64,000 bases of DNA from an uncultured bacterium (lineage in GTDB: Bacteria; Armatimonadota; UBA5829): positions 10,672-74,671 of the forward strand of contig CAZFYZ010000001.1 of the NCBI GenBank assembly GCA_964523735.1, read 5' to 3'. Both the position numbers and the translations under genes were made by a program. This document shows, in pieces, positions 516 through 31,888 of this stretch (positions are counted from its first letter, which is position 1; each line of letters starts with the position of its first letter). The notes beneath the pieces are model-generated. The model made no database searches, was not told the DNA's origin, and was given only the letters and a program-made list of their open reading frames with translations.

Positions 516-1613
516 TCACTTCTGCGGCCAGTCTATGATCAGCGTATCGCCTTGCACATAGCAGGTCAGGCCGTTCTGCCTCAGGAGAGACTCCAGCGCC
601 TGCGAGAGTGGCACGTTGTTGTAGTTCAGGGTGTAGGTCACCTCAGGCAGCGCGGGCAGGATCCGGTAGTTCACCCCCGCGTCGGAGAGAAGCTTGCCGA
701 TGGCCCCAGCCAGCGGCAGGCTGCTGATGGAGGTCGTGACTGTCTTCGTGCCGATCAGCGGATTGGTCTTGTCCACGGTCTGCCCCATTGGCTCGATCAC
801 GATGACGTTACCCTCAACATGGAACGCGAAGCCCTGGTTGCGCAGGGCTGATTCCAGCGCCCCAGCGAGCGGCACATTGTTGTAGCTGAGGCTGATCGTC
901 GGGCTTTGGGGGAGGGGCGAGGTGAACCGGTAGTTCACCCCTGCATCTCTGAGCAGCTTTTCAATGGCCTCGTTGAATGGCAGGTTCTGGATGTTGTTGT
1001 TGACGCGTATGTCGGCCAGCCACTGCGGAACATCGATGTTGCTGCCCGTGCCCATGAATCCTGGCATGACTCCGCTGCCGGTCATTGAACCGCTGGATGT
1101 GCTGGTCGTTGTCGAAGTGCTGGTCTGGCAGTCTCCAGAGCCGCCGCTCACACCTGCTGAGGCTCCTCCCCAGCCGCCCCCGCCTGCGCCGCCTCCAGCC
1201 ATGCCACCGGCGGATCCGGACGTCATTACTCCGGACGACATCCCGGTCCCACCCATCTGCAGCCCGATTGCCCCTCCGGGGGTGGCCGCGTCGATGACCA
1301 CAACGTCACGATCCACGAAGTACTTGAGCCCCTGCGATGGCAGGAACATGTCCAATACCATGCCGAGTGGCACATTGCTGAAGCTCGTGCTGATCGCGCA
1401 GTTCGTCGGCAGTTGGGGCAGCACCTTGTACTTGACTCTGGCGGACTTGAAGATCTGGTCGATTGCGACGGGGAGTGTCTGGTTCTGTACGCTGGTGTTG
1501 ACCATAACGTTATTAAGCCAAGCGGGGGGGGCCTGGTTCTGCGAGGCGCACGGCGCGGTGCAAATGCCGATCAAGACTGTGCAGTAGGCGATGCCCAATG
1601 CTATGGTTCTCAT
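516..1613 (-). CDS. Secreted protein with three tandem ~75-aa STN / secretin-N0-like repeats separated by a Gly/Ser/Thr/Met-rich linker
   Basis: The N-terminal signal peptide is MRTIALGIAYCTVLIGICTAPCASQ. The repeated units are ...IQNLPFNEAIEKLLRDAGVNYRF...ISLSYNNVPLAGALESALRNQGFAFHVEGNVIVIEP, ...LPLAGAIGKLLSDAGVNYRI...YTLNYNNVPLSQALESLLRQNGLTCYVQGDTLIID and ...ISTSFSNVPLGMVLDMFLPSQGLKYFVDRDVVVID. The pattern (V/I)PLxxALxxLLxxxGLxYxVxGxxIxI matches the STN (secretin and TonB N-terminus) signalling-domain consensus. Its start codon is 1 nt after the anti-sigma stop (TGAgATG). Confidence 0.6.
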   Translation of the reverse strand: MRTIALGIAYCTVLIGICTAPCASQNQAPPAWLNNVMVNTSVQNQTLPVAIDQIFKSARVKYKVLPQLPTNCAISTSFSNVPLGMVLDMFLPSQGLKYFVDRDVVVIDAATPGGAIGLQMGGTGMSSGVMTSGSAGGMAGGGAGGGGWGGASAGVSGGSGDCQTSTSTTTSTSSGSMTGSGVMPGFMGTGSNIDVPQWLADIRVNNNIQNLPFNEAIEKLLRDAGVNYRFTSPLPQSPTISLSYNNVPLAGALESALRNQGFAFHVEGNVIVIEPMGQTVDKTNPLIGTKTVTTSISSLPLAGAIGKLLSDAGVNYRILPALPEVTYTLNYNNVPLSQALESLLRQNGLTCYVQGDTLIIDWPQK

Positions 1614-1614
1614 C

Positions 1615-2406
1615 TCAGAGCTCCTTTTGATTCCTGCTGATCTCGGGTTCGTATTGTATCAGCTGCGCGTCATCTGCTACTCCGGAAATCCGCCGTTTCT
1701 CGCGGTAGATCGTGACGGCGCCGGTGGACGGGTCTACGCGGGTGATCTCCATCGAAGACTCCCCAACAACGAACTGCCCTGGGCCGACTCGCGGCGGTGC
1801 CGGCGTCCTCACCACCTGCGTGTCATCGGGCAGAGCCACTTGAGCGTCCTGCTCCGGCTTGGGCTTGAGCGGCTCTGTGACCGAGGCCTGGTTACCCGGC
1901 TGCAGGTTTCTCCTCACTGACGGGACAGGTGCTCGCCTGGAGTGCTTAGCTACGGCTCGTGGTCGAGGTGTTCCCGGCACGTTGACTCTACGTGTTTGGA
2001 GAGCAGTCTGCTGGTTATCCGGCACGTCAGTGACTTTGACTTTGGGAGTAGACTGCTTAATGGCGGTCTGATTGATACCGCCCCGATGCTTGTCCTGCGC
2101 AGGACCCATAAGCAGCGTCGCGCAACAGACAACCACCAGCAGGATCACTGCTGACGCAAGCACCGGCACGAGCCATCTTCGCGGCTGCCTCGCGTAATCG
2201 GGGAGTTGCAAGAGGGCCAGTTCGTCGGGAACCGGCAAATGCTCCCATGGCCCCGAGAGTGCTTCCGCATCCGTCCTGTGCTTCTTGTATTCGGTGGAGC
2301 AAGCCTCGCACTCGGCCAAGTGCTTCATTGCATCATCAGCAAGCCACGAATCCAGTTCACCAGCGGCCAGTTCCGGCATTATCTTAGCGAGCTTCCGGCA
2401 GTTCAT
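1615..2406 (-). CDS. Membrane-anchored anti-sigma factor (zf-HC2-like N-terminus, one TM helix, Pro-rich periplasmic region)
   Basis: The ORF track gives 1615..2484, but the likely start is the internal Met (MNCRKLAKIMPELAAGELDSWLADDAMKHLAECEACSTEY...) at 2406, whose ATG overlaps the TGA stop of the upstream ECF sigma gene (ATGA). The HxxxCxxC-type motif (HLAECEAC) is typical of zf-HC2 anti-sigma factors. One hydrophobic TM segment (WLVPVLASAVILLVVVCCATLLMG) is followed by a Pro/basic-rich region. Confidence 0.65.
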   Translation of the reverse strand: MNCRKLAKIMPELAAGELDSWLADDAMKHLAECEACSTEYKKHRTDAEALSGPWEHLPVPDELALLQLPDYARQPRRWLVPVLASAVILLVVVCCATLLMGPAQDKHRGGINQTAIKQSTPKVKVTDVPDNQQTALQTRRVNVPGTPRPRAVAKHSRRAPVPSVRRNLQPGNQASVTEPLKPKPEQDAQVALPDDTQVVRTPAPPRVGPGQFVVGESSMEITRVDPSTGAVTIYREKRRISGVADDAQLIQYEPEISRNQKEL

Positions 2407-2960
2407 CTCCCCAACTCCTCGTGCTTTCGTCTGAACGCTTCTCGCGCCCTGTGTAAGCGGCCTCTTGCAGCTTGCGGCGAGCATCCCAGGGCGTCGGCCA
2501 GCTCCTGGCTCGACAGGCCCTCGATATAGAACAGCACCAAAGCTGTTCTGGCGTCCGCCGGCAAGCAGTTCATCAAGTCCATGACACTGCTCTCATCGCG
2601 GCCGGTCTGCTCCGGCTCTGGAATCTGTTCCTGAATGTCTCTGCGTCGCGACTCTTTGCGCGCGTGGTCGCAGCAGATGTTGATCGCGATCCGGCAGACC
2701 CACGATCTGAAGCTCGACCTGCCCTGAAACGACCGTATTGACTTGTATGCCCGTATGAATGCCGTCTGAGTAGCATCCACGGCATCTTCGGTGGAGCCCA
2801 GGACCCGCCGGCACACGTTGTAGATGAACTCCTTGTGCCGCTGGAACAGCTGGTCGAAAGCCTCGCGTCTGCCGTCCTGCGCGAGTCTGACGAGAAGCAG
2901 ATCCGTATCCTGCTCAGCCAAGCTCAATCCGAGAGTAGTCTCCATAGGCCCCGCACTCAT
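2403..2960 (-). CDS. ECF-family RNA polymerase sigma factor (sigma-70 regions 2 and 4)
   Basis: The translation ...LLLVRLAQDGRREAFDQLFQRHKEFIYNVCRRVLGSTEDAVDATQTAFIRAYKSIRSFQGRSSFRSWVCRIAIN... shows region 2 with FxxW. The C-terminal ...ALVLFYIEGLSSQELADALGCSPQAARGRLHRAREAFRR is a region 4 HTH. The length is 185 aa, and the gene is translationally coupled to the anti-sigma gene. Confidence 0.85.
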   Translation of the reverse strand: MSAGPMETTLGLSLAEQDTDLLLVRLAQDGRREAFDQLFQRHKEFIYNVCRRVLGSTEDAVDATQTAFIRAYKSIRSFQGRSSFRSWVCRIAINICCDHARKESRRRDIQEQIPEPEQTGRDESSVMDLMNCLPADARTALVLFYIEGLSSQELADALGCSPQAARGRLHRAREAFRRKHEELGR

Positions 2961-3204
2961 GAGTGTTCAGAGTTAAGACGATGCGATGGCAGGCAAATGT
3001 TACGTGGTTCGGACGCCAACCAGTGTAATTTCGCATCTATTCTACAACGGGTGGGGACCACGCGCGCAGACAATGTTGGCGTGATGGATGGCTGCTGCGG
3101 GAGCTGCGTAGGAGAAGTGGCCGGCGGGTGCTTGGCGGCAACGTTACGGCCGGCAAGCGGGGGCTGGGATCTCTCACTTTCCGAAAGCGGCTGCACATAG
3201 ACGA

Positions 3205-3274: not shown

Positions 3275-6200
3275 CTACTGGTTGTACACTTCCAGGCTTA
3301 TGCCTGGCAGGCCAGTGTTACCCAGGCTGCCTCCGCCTCCGGCGAATGGCGCGAAGATGAACTCGTTGGCTCCGACAGTGATCGGCGAGTTGAACGCAAA
3401 TATGCATATCGAGGGGCCGCCAGGGCCTCCTGAGCCGTGGCCGCCGTTACCGCCCTTGCCCCCGACTCCGCCGTTGCCACCCGCGCCGATCTCGTCCGTA
3501 TCAAGCGCCGCTCCGTAGCCGCGTGACCCGCCATTGCCGCCAGCGCCGCCGGCGCCTCCGGCCCCGCCTATTCCGCCACTTCCGGAAGTGAGTTGGTTGC
3601 TGTCTACTGTGGCGACCGCATTAGCGATGAAGACAGCGAACGATCCGCCGCCGCCCTGACCGCCGCTGCCTCCCGCGCCCGCAGCGCCTCCGCCACCGCC
3701 ACCGCCTCCGCCGTTGCCGGAGCCGTCGATGACAAAGAAGCCGGACTGTGCGCCACCGCCGCCTCCGCCTCCGCCGCCGCCGCCGTTGCCGCCGGTGGAG
3801 CCATTACCGCTGGTCGGAGGGAGATACATCCCGTCGGCGACGGTGCCGATTGCCGAGGCTTGCGCGCCGTTCACTCCGTCAGCTCCGTCAGCGCCGTTTT
3901 GCCCGTCGCCGCCGCGCTTGCCGGGGTTGCCCCACGCGCCGCCGGATCCGCCATAAGCGCCACCCGCTCCATATCCGCCCGCCTGGCCGTTATGCTCGCC
4001 CGCAACGCCGCCCTGGCCGCCATATCCGCCAAACATGCCGCACGCAGAGTTCCCGTATGCGCCTCCGTAACCGGGCGGTGTGCCATCGCAGTTGCCGTTT
4101 CCCCCGGGACCACCCTGGCCTCCGGCTTGGCCGGCCGGCCCAGCAACGCCATCCGCGCCGACAGCCCCGCTCCCGGCAGCAATAGCATTACAGCTCAAGA
4201 CCACGTTGCCGGTTCCGTTGCTGATGAGCACGCCATAGCTGCTGCCGCCGGCAGTTGTTGCGTTGGCTGAGAATATGCTGAAGCCCTCGATGTGCGTTTC
4301 CTGGGTGATCGCGTTGGCTGAGATAGCCACAGTCCCGCCAATGATGCTGGTTATGTTGCTCAGCGACCGGCCCCAACGTGCTGTCCCGTCGTAGAGGCCG
4401 TAGATGCTCACGCCAGATTGCATTGCCAGTGTGCCGCCGGTTGGCGAGTAGGCTCCGGCCGCGACGTAAACGTCTTTTCTTGGGGAGGCGGCAGCAGCGA
4501 GCTCGATGCCTCTTTCAATTGTGGCCACCGGCCTGTCGAGGGTGCCTGAGTTCGAGTCGCTGCCCCACGGGCTCGGCGCGACGAAGACTGCGCGCGATAT
4601 GTCACCATCGATGCCGTCGCCGTTGGTGTCCTCGAAGAGGCAATCAGGCCTGTCGGGCGTGCCGTCCCCTGTCATTACCGATATGTCCGACGTAGAATTT
4701 GCGAGCACAACGGGTAGTGACTCTGACTCGTGCAGATACATCGAGGATATCCCGGTTGCAGTTACCTGAGTTCCGGCCTTGGGCACCGGCATGGTCGGCA
4801 GCATCACCCTTATGCCTGCTCCTCCCAGCGGATCAGCTGGGAGTCCTTCGGGCTGGGTGACCGGACCATCCCAAATGTCGATGAACTCTCCCTCTGGATC
4901 GACGTAGGAGACATGCCCCACGACCTTCACGAGCAGGCCGATGTTGTTCAATCCCACTCCGCCCTTGATGCCCTTCTGTCCCCTGCCCGAATCGGTATCA
5001 TAGTTGAGGTCAGCTCCGCCAATTGAACGCGGAGCCATCAACAGCGGCCTGACGATCCCCGACCCCATTGGGATGACGGAGGTCGGCTCGATGTATCTCT
5101 CGCCGGCGTCATTGGTGCGCATGGCCCCTCTGATTCTGACGGCGCTGCCCTCAGTGATGGTCTGGAAGGTGCCCTGGACCCTGATCCCGGAAGAGCGATC
5201 GGGCGATCCGATGTAGAAGAAGCCGGGCCAGATCCTGCTGACGATACCGTCGGGTATGTCCACGTCCGATCCGTCGCCCAGCAGCTTTCCGCCGCTGACG
5301 GTTGGGGCGATGACGGTAAGCGCCGCTGTGCTGGACGCGAAGGGTGCTCCGCCTGCCGGAGTCATCAGGACGTCATATCGGCCCGCGTCGTCTATCTGGA
5401 CCTGGCTGATTACCAGCGTGTCGAGCTGTGTTCCCGAGACTCGTCCTGATTCCTGAAGAGGGATTCCGTTCTTGCGCCACTGGATCGCGCAGTCGCCGCT
5501 CAAGCCTATTCGGAAGACGGCTGTCCCGCCTACCGGCGCAGTGAATGGCTGGGGTTGCGCTGTGATCACGACAGCCGGACCCACCTGAATGTACGCAGTC
5601 GCGATGTTGCTGAAGACGGGGTTCTGGGTCTCCCCCTCGTAGTTGCCACGCGCGACATACTGGAACGAGTCCGTGCCTGTGAAGCCTGCGGGAGGCTGGT
5701 AGGAGAAACCTCCCTCACCGTCGGCGCTGAAAATCACAGTTCCGCCTTGAGCCGTTGTCCGCTGCCCGCCCGGCTGGCTCGACTGGTCGAACACGGCCAC
5801 GACCTCGTAACCAACGTGTTCGGGGCTGATAGTGGGCTCCGGGGCATCGTTGGCCAGCACGCCGGCGGACGAGGCGACTGCCAAAGCACCGCCGGCAGCG
5901 ATGTAGTGATCGTCGTTTGCGAGCTGAAGCCGTCCCGGCTGAATGTCTGCCAGAGCAGCCAGAGCATACTTGATATAGGGGTGACTCTCCGTCGACTGCG
6001 TTGAATCGGGCGCAGCAGCCGTGTCGAGGGCAGTCTGCAGTGCACTCGCCCTCTCAGCCATCAGTCCGATCAGATCGGGCGCAGCGTCAGGGATAGCTGT
6101 TGCCGCGTCCTGATAGACTCTGCTGACGCCGTCTTTGCCAAGCCCGATCCCGTCGCCCTTCAGCAGGCCCCGCAGGAGCTGGTTTCTGTCCATGCTCTGG

Positions 6201-8869
6201 GGGAAACCGAGGCTTACGTAGGCCTCGATCAGCGCCTCTGTGCCTGCAAGTTCGCGTCCCAGCGGATAGATCGCGCTCGTGCCTCCCGCGATCTCGCTCA
6301 CGACTCGCGTGTAGTACTCCTGCTGGAGGCTCTTGAACAGCGCCTGCATCTGCTGCTCAACCGCGGCTTTTCTTGCAGCGTCGGGTTCATGCATGCCGCC
6401 GGCCAGGATTGCGTCCAGCGCCCTCTGGCGAAGATTCTGGTTGCTGGTCCAGAAGGAGTAGACATAGTAGAGGTAACTGTCCCAGACATACGGGGCGGGA
6501 TTCGGGTATGCGTAGTCACCTTTGAGGACGATGTAGTCGCTGCCAATAGCGTGAACTCCGCCGTATATCTGGACCTTGCCGTTGGATGGATCTTCGTGCC
6601 ATAGCGTAACCTCTGCGGCGGGAATGGCCATCAGCATATAGGCACCAAAGTTCGGTATGACAAGCTTGTCGTACCAGTAAGGCCGCACTCGTGCGTGCAG
6701 TGTCCCGAGGTTCAGTAGGTGTTGGTTATTGAAGAGCTGGAACTGACTGAACTTGGCCAGATGTGAGGCGGTCAGATCAAACGAGGAGAGAGAGTTGACG
6801 CCGTCCTGCCTATAGGCAGTCATGCTTATGTTGGTCGGCCAGTCGGGAACCACTTGCGACGGACTGCCGTACATATCGAGCGACTCCTTCAGTACACCGT
6901 CCTTCGGAGTGAGCTGTGTCGTCTCCCGAAGCACCGTTGTCTGCAGGTCGTCGATCGCGGTCGCCATCTGCGCGGTCACGTCACCATGGTGCTGCATGAG
7001 CGCGGTCAGCAGAGGCCGGTTGCCGAAGTTCTGCAGCGCCGACTTCACGCGCTGCCCTTCCTGCGTGATCAGCGCTAGTCGGTTCGGGTCCTTGTAGGCG
7101 TAGAACCACGGGTTCTCCCTGGCAAGCTGTGCATACGCGTTTGCGGCGGTAGCCCAAGCAGTCGGGTTCGCGACACGAGTGGAGTACAACGGGTTTGTCG
7201 TCAAGCCCTGGTCGCGGGGGAACAGCCTCAGGTTGTTGACGCTGTAGCCGTAGTTGGCTTGGTTGAGCATGTTCGCGTCGGCTGCGTTAATGAATGTGAG
7301 TTCGCTCGTGCCGGTTGTAGGCCCGGCCAACAAGCTCGAGAGGACCTCGGTTGTGGCGCGAGTGTAGATAGTGGTCTCGGCAGTGACGAATGACACATCA
7401 CCCTCATAGGGCAGGTCCCAGCCGTTGTTGTTCTGCTTGTAGGCTAGCGAGCCGTCAATTGCCTGCACGAAGCTCTGTTGGTAGCCGTCCGCGAGAGCTC
7501 CGAAGAGGTTCTGGTTGAGCCGGTCGAGGTCGGACTGCAGTTCGAGCACCGAGCTTCTGATCGCGGCAAGGCTGACCTGGACATCGCCAAGCTGGTAGAG
7601 AATCTGGTCCAGACCCCTGTCGATCGTGTCGAACCGGCTGTTGAGCTGCTCGTGCATCGCGAGCATCTGCTGGCGCATTTGGACCACCTGATCCAGCAGG
7701 TCCTCGAGCTGCTGCGTGGTCTGATCTGCCCCAAACAGCCCGGCTGATACACCGAAGATGTCGGACAACCCGAGAATGCCATGGCTGATCGTCATGGGAC
7801 TTGGCTGGGCGAAGGCCAACGCTACTCTGCTTATCCCACTAGCGACCTTTGTGACATCAGCGGCATACTTGGAGATCGTCGCGGCCGTGCTCGCCTGCGA
7901 GTCGTCGCCGGCCACGATCATCACCGCAAGCTCCGCGTGGACGCGGCTGCGGATACCGTTCAGGGCCTCGACGTCCTCGGCTCTTTGAGCACGGGCGGCG
8001 TTGAGCAACTCGATGTTGGGGTTGACGAAGGAAGCCAGGTAGTTCGACTTCTGAATAGCGTCCACCTGAACCGCCGTTTGGACCAGCCCCGGCATGGAAT
8101 CAACCACTGCCCCAGCGTGCGTGATCGCGTCCTGGCAAGTGGGCTGAAAACCCTGCGCCCTCAGCGCCTCAAGCGCCGCATAGTCGGCAGGCAGCGCCGC
8201 CATGGCCGCCGCAACATCGGGATAATGCTCGGCCATAGTGGCTGGCAGCGGGAAAGGGTCGAACCCCTGCGAACTGAGGTAGTGTAGGAACGCGACCCGC
8301 ACGATCGCCTTCGATTCCCCATTGGCATCGAGTCCCAGGAAACCGTAAGTCAGCACCACGTTCAGTTCGGCGCTGTTCGCCAGGTCGAACCCCTGCTCGT
8401 TCACGAAACTCATCAACTTCGTGAGCTGAGTAGCGAGTTCATCCTTGTGCAGGCCGAGCATCTGGAGTATCTCGAGGCCGAAATCCGCCCGCATGCCCGG
8501 CTGCTTAGCCGAGCGAACGCCGAACCTCATCTCCGTCAGGAAGTCGATGGGGATCATCAGGTCGGGGTCATTCGGATTCATCGAACGAATGTGCGCGTCG
8601 AACGCGTTGGCGAAGGCGTCCAGCTGCTCGAGTGTGGCGTTGGGGTTCTCGGCCGCAGCCTGCAAAATGGAGGCGAGCACGCCGACAACCCGATGGTTCG
8701 GCGAGCGCGCCAGGTCTGTCATCACTACCTGACTCGCAGAAATCGCCTGCTTAAGCCTGAGGTAATCGGCCTGGCTTTGTACCTGGAGATCAGGCCGGGG
8801 CAGATCGGCCAGGGCCGAAGTGACCAGAATGAGGGCCGGAATGGCCAGAAGTGCAGAGTGCCTAAACAT
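3275..8869 (-). CDS. Giant secreted multidomain protein (~1865 aa): helical N-terminal region, cadherin/VCBS-like domain, Ig-like domain, parallel beta-helix, and a very long Gly-rich (GGxGGxG) low-complexity C-terminal region
   Basis: The ORF track gives 3275..9112. The likely start is the Met at 8869 (MFRHSALLAIPALILVTSALA, a signal peptide) preceded by GGAGG. The cadherin/VCBS-like motif is VLANDAPEP...GGTVIFSADGEGGFSYQPPAGFTGTDSFQYVARG. The Ig-like (I-set-like) segment is ...GRYDVLMTPAGGAPFASSTAALTVI. The beta-helix-like repeats read ...TVAISANAITQETHIEGFSIFSANATTAGGSSYGVLISNGTGNVVLSCNAIAAG. The C-terminal ~600 aa are dominated by G/A/N/Q/S with runs of GGGGGGGGGG. Confidence 0.75.
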   Translation of the reverse strand: MFRHSALLAIPALILVTSALADLPRPDLQVQSQADYLRLKQAISASQVVMTDLARSPNHRVVGVLASILQAAAENPNATLEQLDAFANAFDAHIRSMNPNDPDLMIPIDFLTEMRFGVRSAKQPGMRADFGLEILQMLGLHKDELATQLTKLMSFVNEQGFDLANSAELNVVLTYGFLGLDANGESKAIVRVAFLHYLSSQGFDPFPLPATMAEHYPDVAAAMAALPADYAALEALRAQGFQPTCQDAITHAGAVVDSMPGLVQTAVQVDAIQKSNYLASFVNPNIELLNAARAQRAEDVEALNGIRSRVHAELAVMIVAGDDSQASTAATISKYAADVTKVASGISRVALAFAQPSPMTISHGILGLSDIFGVSAGLFGADQTTQQLEDLLDQVVQMRQQMLAMHEQLNSRFDTIDRGLDQILYQLGDVQVSLAAIRSSVLELQSDLDRLNQNLFGALADGYQQSFVQAIDGSLAYKQNNNGWDLPYEGDVSFVTAETTIYTRATTEVLSSLLAGPTTGTSELTFINAADANMLNQANYGYSVNNLRLFPRDQGLTTNPLYSTRVANPTAWATAANAYAQLARENPWFYAYKDPNRLALITQEGQRVKSALQNFGNRPLLTALMQHHGDVTAQMATAIDDLQTTVLRETTQLTPKDGVLKESLDMYGSPSQVVPDWPTNISMTAYRQDGVNSLSSFDLTASHLAKFSQFQLFNNQHLLNLGTLHARVRPYWYDKLVIPNFGAYMLMAIPAAEVTLWHEDPSNGKVQIYGGVHAIGSDYIVLKGDYAYPNPAPYVWDSYLYYVYSFWTSNQNLRQRALDAILAGGMHEPDAARKAAVEQQMQALFKSLQQEYYTRVVSEIAGGTSAIYPLGRELAGTEALIEAYVSLGFPQSMDRNQLLRGLLKGDGIGLGKDGVSRVYQDAATAIPDAAPDLIGLMAERASALQTALDTAAAPDSTQSTESHPYIKYALAALADIQPGRLQLANDDHYIAAGGALAVASSAGVLANDAPEPTISPEHVGYEVVAVFDQSSQPGGQRTTAQGGTVIFSADGEGGFSYQPPAGFTGTDSFQYVARGNYEGETQNPVFSNIATAYIQVGPAVVITAQPQPFTAPVGGTAVFRIGLSGDCAIQWRKNGIPLQESGRVSGTQLDTLVISQVQIDDAGRYDVLMTPAGGAPFASSTAALTVIAPTVSGGKLLGDGSDVDIPDGIVSRIWPGFFYIGSPDRSSGIRVQGTFQTITEGSAVRIRGAMRTNDAGERYIEPTSVIPMGSGIVRPLLMAPRSIGGADLNYDTDSGRGQKGIKGGVGLNNIGLLVKVVGHVSYVDPEGEFIDIWDGPVTQPEGLPADPLGGAGIRVMLPTMPVPKAGTQVTATGISSMYLHESESLPVVLANSTSDISVMTGDGTPDRPDCLFEDTNGDGIDGDISRAVFVAPSPWGSDSNSGTLDRPVATIERGIELAAAASPRKDVYVAAGAYSPTGGTLAMQSGVSIYGLYDGTARWGRSLSNITSIIGGTVAISANAITQETHIEGFSIFSANATTAGGSSYGVLISNGTGNVVLSCNAIAAGSGAVGADGVAGPAGQAGGQGGPGGNGNCDGTPPGYGGAYGNSACGMFGGYGGQGGVAGEHNGQAGGYGAGGAYGGSGGAWGNPGKRGGDGQNGADGADGVNGAQASAIGTVADGMYLPPTSGNGSTGGNGGGGGGGGGGGAQSGFFVIDGSGNGGGGGGGGGAAGAGGSGGQGGGGSFAVFIANAVATVDSNQLTSGSGGIGGAGGAGGAGGNGGSRGYGAALDTDEIGAGGNGGVGGKGGNGGHGSGGPGGPSICIFAFNSPITVGANEFIFAPFAGGGGSLGNTGLPGISLEVYNQ

Positions 8870-9283
8870 CTCTCTCCTCCGTACGCACGTTTGCGACACG
8901 GAGAGGTGAGATACATCCCCGTGTCTCGCAATCGGAAGCTTTCGTCGCTTATCCTGGCACGTTCTGGAGGGTTCACGCTGAAGCGTGCTGGACTTCGTGC
9001 GGCGAGTATTACGGGGTCTCCAACTTCTGAGGCCAACTGGAGTGTAGCCCAGGAATGCCTGGCTGTCAAGGGGTGGGGAGGAGGCTGAGTACTTGGCGTC
9101 CCAGCATTCCACAAGCCAGAGGTCCCTTGCAGCCAGCGACCACGAATCCGGCAGGCCCCTGCGGGAACTCTGGCTTGTCCAGCACTGCTAGCTTGTTGTC
9201 AGCATCGTTCCCGCAGTATGGCTTGGGACTGCAGATCGCTCATCCGTGTGTTGGCCCTGGGGAACATGCAGGCGAAGAGGCTG

Positions 9284-11044
9284 CTACTGCGCGCTTTGGA
9301 TGCGGCGCAGCATTTCTTTGGAATCGATGTAGCCTGTCACGCGTGATGAGGTGACTTCCTTGCCTGAGGAGTTTATGAAGACGATTGTGGGCAGGCCCTT
9401 TACGTTGTACTTGCGCATGGCAGTGGTTTCGGCGCGGTCCTGCTTAGTGGCATCCACGCGCAGGCGAACGAATGACGAGGTCGCCTTGACTACCTTCTGA
9501 TCGGCGAATGGCCCGTGCTCAAGCTTCTTGCAGTAGGCGCACCAGTCGGCGGTGAAGTCGATCATAACCGGCTTGTGCTGCTTCACGGCCTGCTGGACGG
9601 CTTTCGGGGAATACGGCTGCCAGGTCATTACGGACTTCTTCGCCGTCGGCGACGCGAGTGCCACGGCAGCTACCAGGGCCAACACGCCGAATGCCTTGCC
9701 CACAGATGCCGTAGCGGGTGTCGTTTTGATCGACTTCTCGAAGAACCCGAGATAGATCCCGCCAACTATCACGATTGCCGGTATCATGTATCTCTGCCAG
9801 GCTTCCGGCGCGAGCGGCATCACGAAGTACGCCGCTGCTCCGATGAGCAGGAACCCCGCGACCTTCTTTACAGCTACCATCCACATGCCCGGAACGGGCA
9901 TTCTGGCGGAGAATGTGGCGAGCACAAAGAGCGGTGTTCCCAGCCCGATGGCTAAGGCAAAGAAGAGCACAAAGCCCATCGCCGGACTTCCCAGCTTCGC
10001 CACGTACAGGAGCAGCCCGAGCACGACCGGTCCCACGCAAGGGGCGGCCACGATCCCGAATATCAGGCCCATGAACAGCGCGCCAAGGATTCCGCTCCTG
10101 GCGGACGCCTTGCTCTCGATGAATGCCGGTGGTCTCAGCTCATACAAGCCGAACATAGACATTGCGAGCGCCAGCAGTACGAGCGCGATTCCCAGCAGCA
10201 CCACGGGGCTCTGCATCGCCGCGCCAAAGACGCCGCCTGTCGTGGCCGCGACTGCCCCGAGCGTTGAATAAGTAAGCGCGATTCCCAGCACGTATGCCGC
10301 GGCCAAAGGCATGACACGCCTGGTGCTTGACTCATGCTGCCCGCTGAAGTAGCCGACTGTCACGGGGATCATGGGATAGACACAGGGAGTAAACGCAAGC
10401 AGCAGGCCCAACCCAAAGAGCGTCAAGAGGCGCAGGGGCAGCCCCCGCTTCTCGAGGTCAGCAGCGAAGTTGTGGTCCTTGGAGGTCGCCGCCGTCTCAG
10501 CCTTTTGGTGGCCGAAGACGCTGCCGTTGATCTTCTTGACCGGCGTGCCCTTCGGAGCGATCTTCACCGTGAGCTTCGAGTTGACAGTCTCCGGCGGGAA
10601 GCACTGGTCCTCTTTGCAGCCCTGCGAATCGAACCTGGACTTGATCGTGATCGCGCCTGTCTTCGCGCCCTGGCGGACACGCCCCTTGACTTTGATCACG
10701 AACGTATCCTCGTAAACAGGCAGCTCCTGGCCTGGCGCAAGCGGCGAACTGATGCGCTTCGGCAGCGGGTAATGCACCGGATCGAGGATCAGGGCCTTCG
10801 GAGCATCTATCTTGAGCTTGGCAGGATAGAGCGAGTCCTTATGTGCGGCGCCAATGTGGTACCCGGCCGTCACTTTACCCTTGAACGCAAGCTCAAAGGA
10901 ATCCCCTGGCCGCAGCTTGTTGGCCGAGAGAAGCAGTTTACCTGTGACGATCCGCTCGGATTCTTGTGCCAAGCTCGAGCCAGCAACTGCGAAGAGCGCA
11001 AGTAACACCACTAACAAGCGAAGACTGTGTCTAATCATTTCCAT
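9284..11044 (-). CDS. dsbD: Thiol:disulfide interchange protein DsbD-like (N-terminal periplasmic domain, multi-TM core, C-terminal thioredoxin domain with WCxxC)
   Basis: A signal peptide is present. The central region has about 8 TM helices with conserved Cys residues (…AFTPCVYPMIPVT… and …VAAPCVGPVVLG…). The C-terminal thioredoxin fold carries DFTADWCAYCKKLE. Confidence 0.8.
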   Translation of the reverse strand: MEMIRHSLRLLVVLLALFAVAGSSLAQESERIVTGKLLLSANKLRPGDSFELAFKGKVTAGYHIGAAHKDSLYPAKLKIDAPKALILDPVHYPLPKRISSPLAPGQELPVYEDTFVIKVKGRVRQGAKTGAITIKSRFDSQGCKEDQCFPPETVNSKLTVKIAPKGTPVKKINGSVFGHQKAETAATSKDHNFAADLEKRGLPLRLLTLFGLGLLLAFTPCVYPMIPVTVGYFSGQHESSTRRVMPLAAAYVLGIALTYSTLGAVAATTGGVFGAAMQSPVVLLGIALVLLALAMSMFGLYELRPPAFIESKASARSGILGALFMGLIFGIVAAPCVGPVVLGLLLYVAKLGSPAMGFVLFFALAIGLGTPLFVLATFSARMPVPGMWMVAVKKVAGFLLIGAAAYFVMPLAPEAWQRYMIPAIVIVGGIYLGFFEKSIKTTPATASVGKAFGVLALVAAVALASPTAKKSVMTWQPYSPKAVQQAVKQHKPVMIDFTADWCAYCKKLEHGPFADQKVVKATSSFVRLRVDATKQDRAETTAMRKYNVKGLPTIVFINSSGKEVTSSRVTGYIDSKEMLRRIQSAQ

Positions 11045-11116
11045 TCCATGTTACCAGATCGTACGTCCATAGTCACGCGGCACCTGCTCAGTGTACGAGT
11101 TCAGTCATGTGATCAT

Positions 11117-11203
11117 GTCATTTCGAGCAGTGCGAGAAACCTGCTTCTTGCGGGGCTCTTGGCAGATGCCGAAAAGCAGATTTCTCACTGCGTTCGAAAT
11201 GAC
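11117..11203. repeat. Long imperfect hairpin (~35-bp arms: GTCATTTCGAGCAGTGCGAGAAACCTGCTTC ... GAAAAGCAGATTTCTCACTGCGTTCGAAATGAC) flanked by 17-bp direct repeats GCGGCACCTGCTCAGTG at 11077-11093 and 11226-11242
   Basis: Read directly from the sequence. It lies in the divergent intergenic region between the dsbD-like gene (minus) and the TPR protein gene (plus). Confidence 0.5.
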
Positions 11204-11487
11204 AACTCCGGAAGACTGAGCTGTTGCGGCACCTGCTCAGTGCAGGAGCTGAGTCTTGCCCGCTGTCGTCTCGAGCAGGGCGAGTTCCATAAGAGTGTGC
11301 GCGTCTTCGCGCTTGCCAGCAACGCTGCAGGCTCTGCTACTCTACATACGTCTTCTATCTCAGCCATGTTACCCAGTGGGGTCGCCTTTCCTCACCGGAC
11401 GGCTCCTTGGGCGGGCAACAGCACCTGGAATTCCGCGTCGATTACTTATATACTGATGTTCGGTAACAAACGCGATGGAGGCACTGT

Positions 11488-21537: not shown

Positions 21538-23532
21538 TTACTTAGAGTTGCCGTTTAGCGCGGATAGCTGCGCAGAGAGATAGTTGCCCTGATCCTGCAG
21601 CTTGGCCAACTGAGATTCCATCGTGTTGAACTGCGAGTAGAGGCGAGCCTCCTGAAGCGCCAGGCGCTCCTCCATATCCGCGATGCTTTCCTCGACATCA
21701 CCAATTGCGTCGGTGAGTGACTGCTCTGCCGTTGTGATTGAGCCATTGGTCGAGGTCATGTTATCGATCAAATCTCTCAGGGTGGCAGCGGCGCCCTTGG
21801 TGTAGGTCAGAGTGGCAGTCATGGGGGCGGGAGACGTGATCAGTAGCGAAATCCCCTTGGCGCTGTTCTTGACCTCATCGCCGCTCAGGGTGAGCATCTG
21901 CCCGTTTCCGGTTGCCTCCACGCCGTTGATCGTGCCGGCCACATCCAGCCCGAGCAGGCCTTGGCCAAGGCCGCTTTCACCCGCCCATGCTCCTTCAACG
22001 GTGCATGCCTTCACATTGCCTACTCCGGTCGTGCCGGCAGTCGTATATGACAGGTTGCTGGCTACCTCGACATTGCGTTTGCTGCCAAAGCCTGTCTGAC
22101 GCAGGGTCAGGTAGTTGCCGGCGCCTGTCCCGTCGGCGCCAGTGGCAAGCGCGGTGACGCCGGTCGTGTTCGAGTAGCTGTTGATCCTGTCCACCACTTC
22201 CTGCAGCGTCATGTTTTGGGTAAGCGTGATGGTAGTGCCGTTGACGGTGAGGGTCTCATCTTGTGCCAGGTTGGCGTCCATCGCCGCCCCGGCTGTCAAC
22301 TGCGCACGCTGTGCTGCCTGAGTGATCGCAACCTCCCAGGCGCTGCCCGTCGGCTTTGTGTCCGCTGTGGAGGACAGATATGTTATGTGCGCGCTGCCGG
22401 AGTCTATGCCCGCGCTGAAGACCCGCATCACCTGCTGAGGGTTTCTGCTCAGTGCTTTGTCCAGATCAGCCTCGTTGACAACCAGATGCCCGCCGAAGTC
22501 CTGGGTTATTCCGATTGCCCCGAGAGCATTGTAGCTGCCGCTGAGGCCTACTACCGGGTTGGTTAGCCCACTGATGATCTCAGACTGGACTCCCCTCAAA
22601 CGAGAATCGCCAAAGAGAGCGCCGGTGAACCCGCTGTCAGGATCGTAATCGAACTGGTCATCAATAGCGTCAGCCAGATCATTGTACTGGGCAACAAAGT
22701 CCTGTATGGCTTCCTTGATGGTTGCCGTGTCTCTTGCAACATCTATGCGAACTGCAGTGCCTGGGTCCGCGCCCAGCAGGTTCATCGTGACCCCCGGTAT
22801 CAGGTCGGAGATGCTGTTGGAGTCCTTGTAGACAGTTATCTTGCCGGCGCCTGTTCCAAGCTCGATCTGGGCCGGGGCGGCTGCCTGGACGGGATTCTCC
22901 AGATCGAAGAGCGGTGCAACGCCCCCAGAAAGGGTTGTGGTTACGGAGAGCATCTTATTGGTCTCACCGCCCTGCGTAGCAGTGAGAAGAAGACGGTAGT
23001 CGGGTTCGCTTTCGGTGCCGCTGTTTACGACCGTGGCCTGGACGCCGCTTCCGGCCTTGTTGATCGCGTCCTTGAGACCTGCGAGAGTATTATTGCTGGA
23101 ATCCAGGGTGACTTTGAGGTTGGTCCCATTGTTGAGAGTGATGTTGACATCGCCGGTCCCAACTACGTCGTTGAGGTTTGTGTAGACTCCCCCTTGCGAG
23201 GATACCTGGTGGTTCACCGCGCGGGAGACTACCGTGACGTAGTAGGTGCCCGTGGCTGCCGTATTGGATGCGGAGGCAGTAAGGATGTCCGAATGGCTCG
23301 ACGATGCGGTGGCAAGGCTGAAGTCCGAGGCGTCGGCAATGGCCGCCACTCTGGTCTTGACTGCGAGAATGCGCGTGTTAAGATCTTGCCAGGCAGTCAG
23401 GCGCTCTTGGTACTGGGCCTTCTGGTTCTCGAGCTGCTTCTGCGGCCTGCGCGCGTAGCCCATGATCTTTGAGATAATATCGTCCGTTTGGAGGCCCGAT
23501 ACAAGACCATTGACGGACATCATTCCAGCCAT
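21538..23532 (-). CDS. fliD: Flagellar filament cap protein FliD (hook-associated protein 2)
   Basis: The N-terminus is MAGMMSVNGLVSGLQTDDIISKIMGYARRPQKQLENQKAQYQERLTAWQDLNTRILAVKT. The C-terminus is ...EERLALQEARLYSQFNTMESQLAKLQDQGNYLSAQLSALNGNSK. Both are typical of FliD. Confidence 0.85.
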   Translation of the reverse strand: MAGMMSVNGLVSGLQTDDIISKIMGYARRPQKQLENQKAQYQERLTAWQDLNTRILAVKTRVAAIADASDFSLATASSSHSDILTASASNTAATGTYYVTVVSRAVNHQVSSQGGVYTNLNDVVGTGDVNITLNNGTNLKVTLDSSNNTLAGLKDAINKAGSGVQATVVNSGTESEPDYRLLLTATQGGETNKMLSVTTTLSGGVAPLFDLENPVQAAAPAQIELGTGAGKITVYKDSNSISDLIPGVTMNLLGADPGTAVRIDVARDTATIKEAIQDFVAQYNDLADAIDDQFDYDPDSGFTGALFGDSRLRGVQSEIISGLTNPVVGLSGSYNALGAIGITQDFGGHLVVNEADLDKALSRNPQQVMRVFSAGIDSGSAHITYLSSTADTKPTGSAWEVAITQAAQRAQLTAGAAMDANLAQDETLTVNGTTITLTQNMTLQEVVDRINSYSNTTGVTALATGADGTGAGNYLTLRQTGFGSKRNVEVASNLSYTTAGTTGVGNVKACTVEGAWAGESGLGQGLLGLDVAGTINGVEATGNGQMLTLSGDEVKNSAKGISLLITSPAPMTATLTYTKGAAATLRDLIDNMTSTNGSITTAEQSLTDAIGDVEESIADMEERLALQEARLYSQFNTMESQLAKLQDQGNYLSAQLSALNGNSK

Positions 23533-23693
23533 CTTGATCCCTCGTTTTTGGAGTGCCGGTTAGCGGCTAGAGGCTAGAACGTCGCCCTCTCGGGGATGCC
23601 TAACCTCCAGCACCAAGAACTCAGCCTGCGGGCCGCTCTCGAGCGACGAAGAATCCGGTTTTGCAGCCACGTCGGCTTTGCACTCTAATAAGA

Positions 23694-23720
23694 GGCTGGG
23701 CCGGAAATACCGGCCCAGCC
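23694..23720 (-). terminator. Intrinsic terminator candidate after flagellin 1: perfect 11-bp stem GGCTGGGCCGG-aaata-CCGGCCCAGCC
   Basis: Read directly from the sequence. It starts 11 nt downstream of the flagellin stop (TAA at 23731-23733) on the minus strand and is followed by UCUUAUUAG. Confidence 0.6.
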
Positions 23721-23730
23721 TGGCAATCGC

Positions 23731-25167
23731 TTAGCGAAGAAGCGAAAGCAGATTCTGAGGAGCCTGGTTGGCCTGAGCAAGCATCGCAACGCCTGCCTGA
23801 TTCAGAATCTGATACTTGGTGAAGTTCACCATCTCGGCGGCCATGTCCGTGTCGCGAATCGTGGACTCGGAAGCCGCGATGTTCTCCTTGGCTACGGTCA
23901 AGCTGTTGATCGAGGACTCGAAGACGTTCTTCTGAGTCGCACCCAGGTTCGCTCTGACCGTTGAGATATCGGAGATCGCCTGGTCGATGATCTTCAGCGC
24001 GTTCGTGGCTGAGCTGGTCACGTCAACGTTAGCCAGCGTCATCCCTGAGACCGCGCCCGCTCCGAGGCTCATGGTGTCGGTCGAAGCGATGTTGACCGTT
24101 CTCGTCTGATCGGCGTAAGCACCGACCTGGAACTTCAGCGAACCGCTCGCGGTTGTGAACTGAGCGCCGAGGTCAGCTACCGCCGAGGCGGCTGCCGCAG
24201 TCAGAGAGATCGAGTTGCCAAGGCTGTCCTTGAGCTGGGTTCCGGTGCCGGAGGTCCAGCTTGTGTCTGACACGTTTCCACCCAGTCCGCCGGAGTGTGT
24301 GACCGTGGCGGCCACATTCACGCCAGCATCGGAGGCGGCAAGCGCGCCACCCACGTTGAAGCCGGCGCCGTTGGTAACCGAGATTGTCGCCGCGCTGCCA
24401 TACTCGGCGCTAGTGAGCGTGATCGTACCGGTGCCGCCCAAGCCAGCGGTGACACCAGTCGTGTCGGTCTTGGCGTTGATTGCGGCAGCCAGCTGCGTGA
24501 CGGTCATCGTCGCGGTGTAATTGATCTGAACGGTGTTGCCCTTGCCTGTGAGCATGAACGAACCGTCAGTGCCGCCCAGCGCAACTGTGTCATTGGCGCC
24601 GAAGGATTTGCTGAGGATGGTCGCCTTCTCAGCGGCCGTCGTGACGTTGACGCTAACTGTGTCGGAAACGGCAAGCGTGCTGGAGTAGTTCATGTTGGCT
24701 GCCGTCACGGACGAGCCCGTGATGGTGGCCTTGATACCGGCAGAGCCGTCCAGCAGTTTCTTGTTTCCGAACTGGGTCTCGCTGGAGATCTTGTTGATCG
24801 ACGCGAGGGCGTTGGTGATCTGGGACTGGTCAGCGGCGATGGCTGCTGTGTCGTTGGCGCCGGTGTTCGCTGCGTGCACCGCCAGGTCTCTCATAGAACG
24901 CAGAAGGTTGTTGACCTCGTTGAGGGCGCCTTCTGTGGTCTTGACCATGTTGACCGCGTCACCCGCATTCTGAATGGCCTGCTGCAGGCCGCTCACCTGG
25001 GCTCGCAGTTTCTCGGAAATAACAAGTCCTGCCGGGTCATCACCGGCGGAGTTGATCTTGAAACCCGAGGACAAGCGCTCAATGCTCTTGGAAAGAGCGC
25101 TGTCAGTGCCCGCCAGATTGCGGCTTGCTGTCAAAGCAGCAGAGTTGAGGTTGATTCTGAGACTCAT
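23731..25167 (-). CDS. fliC: Flagellin (copy 1), 479 aa
   Basis: The ORF track gives 23731..25209. The real start is the Met at 25167 (MSLRINLNSAALTASRNLAGTDSALSKSIERLSSGFKINSAGDDPAGLVISEKLRAQVSGL...), preceded by GGAGG. The C-terminus ...QILNQAGVAMLAQANQAPQNLLSLLR is the conserved flagellin D0 region. Confidence 0.9.
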   Translation of the reverse strand: MSLRINLNSAALTASRNLAGTDSALSKSIERLSSGFKINSAGDDPAGLVISEKLRAQVSGLQQAIQNAGDAVNMVKTTEGALNEVNNLLRSMRDLAVHAANTGANDTAAIAADQSQITNALASINKISSETQFGNKKLLDGSAGIKATITGSSVTAANMNYSSTLAVSDTVSVNVTTAAEKATILSKSFGANDTVALGGTDGSFMLTGKGNTVQINYTATMTVTQLAAAINAKTDTTGVTAGLGGTGTITLTSAEYGSAATISVTNGAGFNVGGALAASDAGVNVAATVTHSGGLGGNVSDTSWTSGTGTQLKDSLGNSISLTAAAASAVADLGAQFTTASGSLKFQVGAYADQTRTVNIASTDTMSLGAGAVSGMTLANVDVTSSATNALKIIDQAISDISTVRANLGATQKNVFESSINSLTVAKENIAASESTIRDTDMAAEMVNFTKYQILNQAGVAMLAQANQAPQNLLSLLR

Positions 25168-25595
25168 AGCGATTCCTCCCTGAAATGCTATCGCCAATCC
25201 ATGGCGCATCGGCTCTTAGCCGACAAACGTTGGGCGGCTAGTTCTCTACCAGGCTTGCCATCGGCTGCCCCGTAATACTCCGGAAGCCTGGGCCCGCTCA
25301 GCTGACATGGAAACCATGTCCGCAGCGGGCGGACGACCATCCTTGAGCCCGATCCGCTGCCGCCATCCGACGCATTTCAGTAAGGGTACTCCACGTAGAA
25401 GTATCGACCTTGGTGCGGCGGCACTTGAGCTGCTCGCGGAGCCGGGCCAGTTCTGTCGGCCTGAATGGTTCTCAATCTACCATTTGCTTCTTCCATGAGA
25501 GACCGCTCGCAATAACACCAGATTTTCAAAAAAATCACTGCGTGCCATGGGCCATCCGAGTGGCGCCAGTTGGTCGCGCGTCGCCTGCCTCGCCG

Positions 25596-25640
25596 CCACC
25601 AAAAAGGCGGGCGCCGAACTCCAAAGGAGCCCGGCGCCCG
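25596..25640 (-). terminator. Intrinsic terminator after flagellin 2: stem GGGCGCCG...CGGCGCCC followed by CCUUUUUGG on the minus strand
   Basis: Read directly from the sequence. It lies 30-70 nt downstream of the flagellin 2 stop (TAA at 25669-25671). The loop itself contains a small CUCC-UUU-GGAG hairpin. Confidence 0.65.
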
Positions 25641-25668
25641 GTTGAGAATGAGGTCCTGGTTGTTCTGC

Positions 25669-27102: not shown

Positions 27103-27529
27103 TTTGGTCTTTCCTCCTTGAACGATTGCTCGTTGTCCTGTCGCGACTGACTTCCTGTCAGCTCAAGGACGTTTACGGCGCCTGCCGGAGCAGGCTTCTC
27201 CTACCTACTACATCGACTACGTGCGGACGCGGCATTAGCATCTTTTTTGGGAATTTCAGGGGTGCCAGGAGGCCTAGCTGATCCACGCTCTACACCTTGC
27301 TTGAGTCCGTCTGCGCTGAGTAGCGGCAGCATATCGAAGCGCCGCGCCTGGGCATTCGGTAGGGCACGGCTGCCAATGCTGTGCGGGGTGGTGGGAGTTG
27401 GCCAGCGTGGATGGTTCTAGATGAGACGTGATGAGCTGGTCCGGACGTGACAGAGGGTGGTACCGTACTTAGGTATCAGACGGCACAGAAGGCAGGAAGA
27501 TGGCCAGGCTAGCCTCTTGCGGATGGATT

Positions 27530-27754
27530 CTAGGCTTCTCCAAGGGCTTTGGAGACCGCATCCACTGAGGCCTCGCCGGCCGCTCTTACGTTTTCTGCCC
27601 TAATCTGGTCCAAGAGTTCCTTGCGGTGCACCGGTATCGACTTAGGCGCGTTGATGCCCAGCCGCACCTGGTCACCCCTTACTTCGATGACCAGAAGCTC
27701 GATGTTGTCGTTGATGATGATCGACTGCCCGACCTTCCTGGCTAGAACTAACAT
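27530..27754 (-). CDS. csrA: Carbon storage regulator CsrA
   Basis: The sequence MLVLARKVGQSIIINDNIELLVIEVRGDQVRLGINAPKSIPVHRKEL is unmistakable for CsrA. It sits between fliW and the flagellin gene, as in the Bacillus-type FliW-CsrA-Hag module. Confidence 0.9.
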   Translation of the reverse strand: MLVLARKVGQSIIINDNIELLVIEVRGDQVRLGINAPKSIPVHRKELLDQIRAENVRAAGEASVDAVSKALGEA

Positions 27755-27784
27755 CTTGAGTGCTTCCTTTCACTCGTGCGGCCC

Positions 27785-28264: not shown

Positions 28265-28284
28265 CTTAACCTCCATTGCCCTCA

Positions 28285-29202: not shown

Positions 29203-29326
29203 ATGGCTTACCTACTGGGGCTGTTGCGGAGCTGTAGCGGGCGTCTCTGACGCCCCTGGGAGGCGTCGGAGACGCCTGCTACAACTGCGGATCACAGAAG
29301 AGCGATCTATCGCAACTGCCTCCTAC

Positions 29327-30679: not shown

Positions 30680-30684
30680 TGAGG

Positions 30685-31191: not shown

Positions 31192-31195
31192 GCTG

Positions 31196-31483: not shown

Positions 31484-31489
31484 GGCTTC

Positions 31490-31864: not shown

Positions 31865-31888
31865 CGGGCTGAACCTGTCACCTGTCCC

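Follow-up and report, generated by a model that had tools for sequence, protein, structure and literature searches.

In the present study, we analyzed a giant gene on the minus strand of a 64,000-nucleotide stretch of DNA (hereafter, the window) from an uncultured bacterium of the phylum Armatimonadota, and we consider it probable, on balance, that its product of 1,864 amino acids (aa) is a secreted mosaic protein, in which a part resembling the homologous protein P0001 has been fused with a module made of a beta-helix and glycine-rich segments, which plays a binding or matrix role at the cell surface, and the expression of which is tied to extracytoplasmic function (ECF) sigma factors. According to this proposal, the protein would be exported through the Sec pathway and would consist of an ancestral part (aa 1-1397), comprising a mainly helical core, a cadherin-like domain, an immunoglobulin (Ig) domain, and an OB-like module, to which a 461-aa module (aa 1404-1864), elsewhere an independent secreted protein, has been joined in frame. 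The conserved core may be the functional head of a surface-exposed binding or matrix protein, and ECF sigma factors may connect its expression to envelope signaling. Coordinates refer to the whole 64-kb window and residue numbers to the ATG form of the giant protein; the features are collected in Table 1.

Regarding the gene model, a single unbroken open reading frame (ORF) runs on the minus strand and terminates at 3275. The longest mechanical ORF begins at a GTG at 9112 (1,945 aa); the ATG at 8869 is the sensible start; it is preceded by GGAGGAGAGAG, with six bases between them, and the N-terminus that it opens, MFRHSALLAIPALILVTSALA followed by DLP, reads as a Sec leader. Hydrophobic leaders also open the homologous proteins, and the alignment with P0001 begins at residue 1 of both proteins, the giant protein being taken in its ATG form. 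An earlier note on this DNA, made without database searches, had described the product as a secreted protein of 1,865 residues; the size is borne out when the stop is included among the 1,865 codons, and the Sec-type leader agrees with secretion. The same 1,864-aa protein is present in the public collection as P0041 (NCBI, 117-kb contig). The possibility that the ORF is split by a frameshift, raised in the earlier note, was checked, and the frame was found to be intact: no frameshift is visible, and the protein is collinear with P0001 over aa 1-1397 and with P0002-P0006 over aa 1404-1864.

The two collinear parts account for the fusion that we propose. P0001 matches aa 1-1397 end to end and stops immediately after the OB-like module, while the C-terminal module is 47-54% identical to P0002-P0006, which are stand-alone secreted proteins of approximately 555 aa. 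In the giant protein, this module has neither its own signal peptide nor the N-terminal domain of its stand-alone relatives, and the simplest history is that a P0001-like gene was fused with a P0002-like gene that lacked the signal peptide and the first ~100 aa. The complete architecture occurred a single time among ~15 billion proteins searched. The giant protein has the unusual composition that had been attributed to it: one of its parts is a well-known domain, another is a known domain at the borderline of recognition, and three are modules without annotation. Each of these modules occurs separately elsewhere, most of them are unstudied, and the protein does not represent a novel type of system.

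In a confident structural model of the C-terminal module, we encountered the three-stranded rungs of a right-handed parallel beta-helix (pectin-lyase fold), and the module as modeled is a right-handed beta-helix, in line with the beta-helix that had been recognized from the sequence. More distant members of the module family, with 36-40% identity, were also found, some of them carrying fused Cys-rich MopE-type repeats, and the family is spread over several phyla. The distance from the DxNxDGIDGD motif to the C-terminus is constantly 461-512 aa across members, and the alignment of the module contains invariant glycines by the dozen.

The glycine-rich region had previously been described as a ~600-aa polyglycine "C-terminal third" of extreme low complexity, and both parts of this description need to be revised: the region covers aa ~1565-1850, i.e., ~290 aa or 15% of the protein with ~42% glycine, and belongs to the conserved 461-aa module with its dozens of invariant glycines. 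It is interrupted by the extra rungs SFAVFIANAVATVDSNQL and SICIFAFNSPITVGANEFIF, and the later rungs are spaced by glycine-triplet segments of 57-178 aa. Poly-glycine runs of 11 and 9 residues are present. The autocorrelation of glycine was 0.49 at lag 3 and 0.34 at lag 6. Furthermore, several of the glycine segments have a predicted local distance difference test (pLDDT) score of ~90 or higher, yet no helix or strand is assigned to them by DSSP. Since a period of three in segments that are confidently modeled without DSSP structure fits polyglycine-II (PGII) or polyproline-II helices, we infer from the model that the glycine-triplet segments may form PGII-type helices packed beside the beta-helix. 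The C-terminal end, ...GISLEVYNQ, is the conserved final strand of the module and is, therefore, part of the fold and not a sorting signal; scans of the C-terminus of the giant protein against Pfam and NCBIfam also gave no match for LPXTG, PEP-CTERM, or the C-terminal domain of the type IX secretion system (T9SS), in accordance with the earlier statement on sortase, PEP-CTERM, and T9SS signals.

An AlphaFold-supported model of the PGRS domains of mycobacterial PE_PGRS proteins, in which glycine triplets form PGII sandwiches, was previously reported (PMC9436101). The PGRS domains likewise consist of glycine triplets with a strong period of three, are modeled by AlphaFold with confidence and without alpha or beta structure, and are surface-exposed, whereas the glycine segments of the giant protein are conserved in sequence and length instead of being polymorphic, are embedded in a beta-helix, and belong to an Armatimonadota host. 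Membership in PE_PGRS itself was rejected: there is no PE domain, the N-terminus consists of a Sec signal peptide and an unrelated core, and no homology was detected. The term "PGRS-like" used in the earlier note may be retained in the sense of a structural analogy, with period-3 triplets and a putative PGII conformation, but not as a sign of kinship. PE_PGRS proteins are secreted via ESX-5, and other PGII bundles are present in the snow-flea antifreeze protein and in gp38 of phage S16.

Two other glycine-rich folds were considered and rejected. The calcium-binding RTX beta-roll is also glycine-rich, secreted, and C-terminal; however, it is built from tandem GGxGxDxUx nonapeptides with a period of 9, and a search for GGxGxD anywhere in the giant protein gave zero matches with a glycine period of 3, as anticipated by the remark that the tail is not of the canonical RTX type. 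A collagen-like triple helix, which calls for long unbroken Pro-rich G-X-Y runs, was also excluded, as the longest G-x-x run has 10 triplets and Pfam Collagen gave no match. Regarding the beta-helix itself, the module was compared with DUF1565, the autotransporter passengers Vag8, UpaB, and pertactin, and the polysaccharide lyases, esterases, and epimerases. Between 140 and 180 of the 461 residues align to solved beta-helices, with TM-scores of at most 0.23, and glycine-triplet segments such as those between the later rungs are seen in no solved beta-helix. A profile search of the PDB with the module returned only linker noise, and no solved structure covers the glycine-rich part. DUF1565 (PF07602) had no match in the window module and matched one of the 12 aligned members at 2.5e-4, and P0023 carries PF07602. 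No catalytic motif of beta-helix enzymes was identified in the C-terminal module.

The N-terminal core (~980 aa) had no match above threshold in Pfam, NCBIfam, or the PDB. A word-indexed search of 5.8 billion sequences returned one relative, P0001 (39% identity, 99% coverage), and two pattern-based scans built on this close pair returned zero; the core was consequently suggested to be an orphan region, which was overturned by an exhaustive hidden Markov model search that retrieved 550 core-family cluster representatives at E<=1e-3, 62 of them at E<=1e-30. The earlier note had found no recognizable family in the N-terminal region, and this remains valid insofar as no described family covers it, but the region is not unique. 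The core is predicted by a low-confidence model to be mostly helical, with a beta-rich stretch at aa ~720-805.

The core family was defined by the profiles A1, A3, and A4 (~1,000 positions). Since the window protein seeded the profile, independent support for membership must come from other members: P0001 and P0042 are matched over the full length of the profile, and both of the conserved blocks (profile positions 1-660 and 860-1010), which flank a variable beta-rich stretch, are recognized in dozens of members. Members are 1,000-2,000 aa long, and most are Phycisphaerales proteins of ~1,200 aa. Among species-representative genomes, the family was found mainly in Phycisphaerales, with a few occurrences in Myxococcota and Gammaproteobacteria, all of them in metagenome-assembled genomes, and the only named member is QQS09685.1, a "hypothetical protein". 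A signature of the most conserved part of the core consists of R412-F-D414, N545, W572, Y579, E585, P587, G605, and Q672, each of which is conserved in 80-94% of 151 sequences, and the giant protein carries every one of these residues. The same part contains a long coiled-coil-like segment at aa 383-480, and the only recurrent Pfam matches in the core were to coiled-coil families, below threshold (Baculo_PEP_C in 35 and DUF1664 in 24 of 41 members). A profile of 41 core sequences matched no solved structure in the PDB, where it returned only dockerin, Ig, and coiled-coil noise.

In typical members, the core is followed by Big_9/cadherin-like domains and a terminal dockerin (the GC-type dockerin of NCBIfam); all five full-core Phycisphaerales members that were scanned end in this manner (P0044, P0048, P0058, and P0064 by NF041540; P0046 by Pfam). 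The GC-dockerin proteins of Phycisphaerales resemble the giant protein in their signal peptide, their ~980-aa core with 20-31% identity and the same signature residues, and the Big_9/cadherin-like domain that follows it. The giant protein belongs to another phylum and has Ig, Armatimonadota OB-like, and beta-helix/glycine modules in place of the dockerin, and an NCBIfam scan of it gave no match to NF041540.

Regarding the middle domains, Big_9 (PF17963) matched the giant protein at aa 1031-1074 with an E-value of 1.4e-4 and 23.1 bits against a cut-off of 23.6, and tand_rpt_95 of NCBIfam matched weakly at the same domain. Big_9, Cadherin_4, and Cadherin_5 match clearly at the equivalent position in homologues (Big_9 in 25 of 41 members); the cadherin/VCBS-like domain that had been proposed is, thus, clear in relatives and only borderline in the giant protein. 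The Ig-like domain, also proposed previously, was recognized by I-set well above the gathering threshold of Pfam (E 8.6e-9, 35.8 bits against a cut-off of 23.7). It was the sole match in a PHROGs scan, and its PDB matches were the Ig domain of a phage tail protein and the Ig domains of titin and Robo.

The profile of the OB-like module gave one weak match to YgiW (1nnx; E 0.003 over 65 positions), which covers the first half of the module. This module was found in many secreted proteins of Armatimonadota together with unrelated partners, such as a pyrroloquinoline quinone (PQQ) sugar dehydrogenase, RCC1 repeats, and small secreted proteins. Among proteins P0008-P0039, 21 of the 25 that carry it with unrelated cargo have it at the C-terminus, and it, therefore, behaves like a phylum-specific anchoring or sorting domain. 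Considering that the combination of the core and cadherin-like domains commonly ends in a dockerin in the Phycisphaerales proteins examined, the variable C-terminal module may hold the protein at the surface, and the OB-like module of Armatimonadota would then have the end-of-protein surface-attachment role that the dockerin has in Phycisphaerales.

The proposed link to ECF sigma factors is based on gene neighborhoods. As pointed out in the earlier note, the giant gene lies just upstream of an ECF operon, with the sigma, anti-sigma, and STN genes downstream on the same strand beyond a 314-nt spacer that contains the 3' hairpin described below. In the core family, a PF07638-type ECF sigma gene and/or its partner Ser/Thr kinase gene (TPR- or WD40-containing) was present within two genes at 9 of the 34 non-redundant loci (L005, L007, L008, L012, L013, L024, L028, L031, and L033). 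These loci belong to several branches of the family and show four arrangements, namely, on the same strand (downstream or upstream), convergent, and divergent. ECF or kinase genes accounted for 14 of the 121 neighbors at ranks 1-2 and for 7 of the 239 at ranks 3-10 (Fisher p 0.0015, which overstates independence because the genomes counted are related). An alignment of 10 sequences was used to find the loci instead of that of 41 sequences, which was too diverse for this purpose, and the neighboring ECF sigmas were detected by clustering and Pfam; a single-sequence phmmer search with the window sigma missed them.

The genomic neighborhoods of ECF sigmas often retain genes linked to them, among which are regulators such as Ser/Thr kinases, and kinase-linked groups comprise ECF43 and ECF59-62 (PMC7826278). 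The pairs of an ECF sigma and a Ser/Thr kinase that adjoin relatives of the giant protein are similar to these groups. The cassette in the window rather resembles FecI/FecR cell-surface signaling, which also employs an ECF sigma, a membrane anti-sigma, and a protein with STN and FecR_C-like parts, here adjoining the giant gene; it differs from FecIR-type systems in that it has no TonB-dependent barrel and that its anti-sigma matches zf-HC2 only and not FecR. A part played by the giant protein itself in signaling would be conjectural.

Several points weigh against our proposal. The pLDDT score is only 57-73 in parts of the glycine region, the OB-fold assignment of aa 1195-1397 depends on the single weak match to YgiW, and the AlphaFold2 model of the N-terminal 982 aa, which was built on a two-sequence alignment, has a pLDDT of 30. 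The conserved polar residues of the core (R412, D414, N545, Y579, E585, and Q672) would suit an enzyme too, and the functions of all three unannotated modules have been arrived at by inference. As for regulation, besides the relatedness of the genomes in the Fisher test, the ECF sigmas that neighbor the family are kinase-linked (PF07638), unlike the sigma/anti-sigma/STN cassette of the window, and the two closest homologues have no ECF cassette in their short visible flanks. A tblastn search of the P0001 locus (L001) found no sigma or anti-sigma related to those of the window. Moreover, the region upstream of the giant gene yielded no ECF-type promoter; the best promoter-like site there is sigma-70-like and is a consensus match only. 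The earlier suggestion that the giant protein is the cargo or the trigger of the ECF cassette is, thus, indirectly and partly supported by the recurrent adjacency in the family and weakened by the different type of ECF sigma, the closest homologues, and the promoter. At the L001 locus, we also observed a 276-aa protein with a weak FecR_C match at 10595-11425 (+), ~6 kb downstream.

The main rival to a binding or matrix role is that of a giant extracellular enzyme, in which catalysis would reside in the core, built for instance like a polysaccharide lyase or hydrolase that combines a helical toroid with a beta-sandwich, and the other modules would bind the substrate or serve as anchors. Conserved polar and aromatic residues cluster at aa 400-680 (R412, D414, D417, R450, N545, R565, W572, Y579, E585, and Q672), the dockerin and the OB-like module are attached elsewhere to enzymes such as the PQQ sugar dehydrogenase, and a GH123 enzyme and polysaccharide-synthesis genes are also present in the window. 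However, the 41-sequence profile matched no solved enzyme, Pfam (41 members) and NCBIfam (8 members) gave no enzyme family, and the long coiled-coil-like segment in the most conserved stretch would be unusual for an active site. We consider a catalytic core to be rather unlikely. A more far-reaching version of our own proposal, in which the core family represents a new class of extracellular partners of ECF modules, sensed or controlled by them at the surface (kinase-linked in Phycisphaerales and sigma/anti-sigma/STN here), and the tail is a hitherto undescribed hybrid fold of a beta-helix and a PGII sheet, appears to be distinctly unlikely.

Alternatively, the giant protein may be the extracellular sensor or trigger of the ECF cassette, with its signal relayed via the STN/FecR_C protein and the anti-sigma, while its relatives in Phycisphaerales feed Ser/Thr kinases. 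Its position on the same strand directly upstream of the cassette and the repeated proximity of the core family to ECF sigma and kinase pairs in four gene arrangements are consistent with this idea; however, adjacency does not separate a regulon target from a signal source, neither an ECF nor a kinase gene is present within two genes at 24 of the 34 family loci, and the visible flanks of the closest homologues lack the cassette, as described above. A sequence block also appeared to connect the two units: TCCCCACCC[G/C]TTG, then TACACT, and then GTTGGCnTCnGAA are found on the minus strand upstream of both the giant gene (9041-9079) and the sigma gene (3022-3057), and the composite TCCCCACCC-S-TTG...TACACT has just these two sites in 64 kb. 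This pattern was defined post hoc, its spacing differs by 3 nt between the two sites, and their local alignment was not above that of shuffled sequences, on the basis of which a promoter common to the giant and sigma genes was rejected. Altogether, the role of a sensor or trigger is improbable in our opinion.

We regard as very improbable that the helical N-terminal region acts as a toxin or on membranes, as a coiled coil of the pore-forming or fusion type that adhesin-type domains would deliver. The large size and the secretion of the protein would suit this role, as would the weak and repeated matches of aa 383-480 to heptad regions of viral fusion proteins and to apolipoprotein-like or coiled-coil families (HA2, CoV_S2, Baculo_PEP_C, and Apolipoprotein), but every such match was below the curated thresholds and typical of coiled-coil noise, no toxin family was matched, and no immunity or secretion-system genes are located nearby. 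The least credible explanation is that the fusion is an assembly or sequencing artefact merging two neighboring genes, as the architecture found only once, the end of P0001 exactly where the extra module begins, and the separate gene with its own signal peptide that encodes the C-terminal module elsewhere might suggest, since the frame is open without a stop across the junction on a 117-kb contig, the fused module is devoid of the signal peptide and N-terminal domain as expected of a true fusion, and the GC content shifts only where glycine codons dominate.

Table 1. Features of the giant gene, its product, and the adjoining ECF cassette in the window
Feature	Coordinates	Strand	Basis
Complete coding sequence of the giant protein, 1,864 aa + stop	3275..8869	-	ORF list and translation; identical to public P0041
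Signal peptide, aa 1-21 (MFRHSALLAIPALILVTSALA), cleavage predicted after ALA	8807..8869	-	read from sequence
N-terminal core, aa 22-980, predicted mostly helical, beta-rich at ~aa 720-805, unannotated family	5930..8806	-	searches and low-confidence model
Most conserved part of the core, aa ~385-680	6830..7717	-	conservation over 151 sequences, invariant columns
Cadherin-like / Big_9 (tandem-95-like) domain, aa ~985-1095	5585..5917	-	Pfam borderline, clear in homologues
Ig I-set domain, aa 1101-1176	5342..5569	-	Pfam PF07679
OB-like "SGIRV...GERYI...GLNNIGLLV" module, aa 1195-1397	4679..5287	-	homologues; YgiW match; no Pfam family
C-terminal module, first part, aa 1404-1564: acidic DTNGDGIDGD loop (aa 1414-1423), helical cap, ~six modeled beta-helix rungs	4178..4660	-	
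C-terminal module, second part, aa 1565-1864: glycine-rich segments, two further beta-rungs, final strand	3278..4177	-	composition, autocorrelation, model
15-bp perfect inverted repeat, 9-nt loop, 32 nt past the stop codon	3205..3243	-	fold energy and shuffles
GGAGG ribosome-binding site (8876-8880) and leader hairpin CUCCGU...ACGGAG (8877-8903)	8876..8903	-	sequence
Sigma-70-like promoter candidate TTGACA-17-TACACT, 172 nt upstream of the ATG	9041..9069	-	consensus scan, 10/12 matches
Downstream ECF cassette, sigma + anti-sigma + STN/FecR_C protein	516..2960	-	Pfam
ECF sigma	2403-2960	-	Pfam
zf-HC2 anti-sigma	1615-2484	-	Pfam
Secreted STN-repeat protein with FecR_C-like end	516-1613	-	Pfam

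Regarding the flanking signals, the perfect inverted repeat that had been noted behind the gene was located exactly as described, with a fold energy of -25.1 kcal/mol (z -4.8) and no T-tract after it; it is unique in the window, apart from three 3-mismatch matches to one arm only, and is probably a terminator or an RNA-stabilizing hairpin. The complementary arms of the leader hairpin, which had been proposed to sequester the ribosome-binding site, are present, but the fold is not significant, as 10 of 200 shuffled sequences folded equally well or better (z -1.7). Rfam gave no match in the window.

When the regions preceding core-family genes were searched with gapped dyads for a shared promoter, the overall result did not exceed the control. 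Separately, the dyad GGGCG-N12-17-GTCGC was observed at seven Phycisphaerales loci (L004, L010, L013, L014, L020, L022, and L032), where it precedes the core-family gene by 6-73 nt (in L013, it overlaps the called start) and has the spacing GGGCGC-N13-GTCGC in six of the seven cases. Fifteen occurrences are located no more than 250 nt from the start of a gene on the same strand, seven of them at a core-family gene, where the dyad is enriched, and none lies upstream of ECF or kinase genes. The dyad looks like a family-specific promoter or operator.

In another locus of the family (L003), a 639-aa secreted beta-helix protein (6049-7968, +) has GNGGxGGxGG segments between its rungs and a dockerin at its end, and a profile match between it and the C-terminal module of the window had a probability of 92%. 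Its gene precedes the core-family gene by 33 nt in the same orientation, which is a single case; a glycine-rich beta-helix and the core are, hence, encoded by adjacent genes in L003 and are fused in the window protein.

Within the ECF cassette, the anti-sigma ORF as listed overlaps the sigma gene by 82 nt, and its zf-HC2 match begins at residue 29, which indicates that the true start is probably the ATG near 2406, beside the sigma stop codon; this start would suggest that the sigma and anti-sigma genes are translationally coupled. The STN protein of 365 aa has a signal peptide, at least two STN domains (probably three) with a Gly/Ser/Thr-rich linker between them, and the FecR_C-like end, and no TonB-dependent barrel was found in it.

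Other genes in the window include one for a DsbD-type thiol:disulfide interchange protein (DsbD_TM and thioredoxin; 9284-11044, -), which immediately precedes the giant gene and shares its strand, a flagellar cluster with FliD, flagellin, FlgK, FlgI (P-ring), and FlgA (21538-34701, -), a gene for a 1,015-aa GH123-type glycoside hydrolase (40612-43659, -), and a surface-polysaccharide cluster that encodes a Wzy-like ligase, a Wzz/tyrosine-kinase-type protein, and a CapD-like dehydratase (46463-60490, +). A 225-aa Ala-rich ORF (3593-4270, +) is antisense to the glycine-rich coding region and is probably an artefact of GGC-rich codons read backwards, not a gene. For DapA, a housekeeping gene in the window, the best named matches all came from Armatimonadota, with identities of 64-77%.

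The present results do not overturn current knowledge; however, they delimit two sizeable unannotated families, namely, a secreted core of ~1,000 aa that is found mainly in Phycisphaerales and a 461-aa beta-helix module with glycine triplets, and the conservation of the latter and the link between the core family and ECF genes are points worth recording. If the PGII conformation of the triplets is correct, this fold would be used well outside mycobacteria in a conserved, non-polymorphic form, and the module would offer experimental access to a structure that has proved refractory in PE_PGRS proteins. The recurrent ECF neighborhood of the core family represents a testable lead to the targets or inputs of the poorly understood kinase-linked ECF sigmas.

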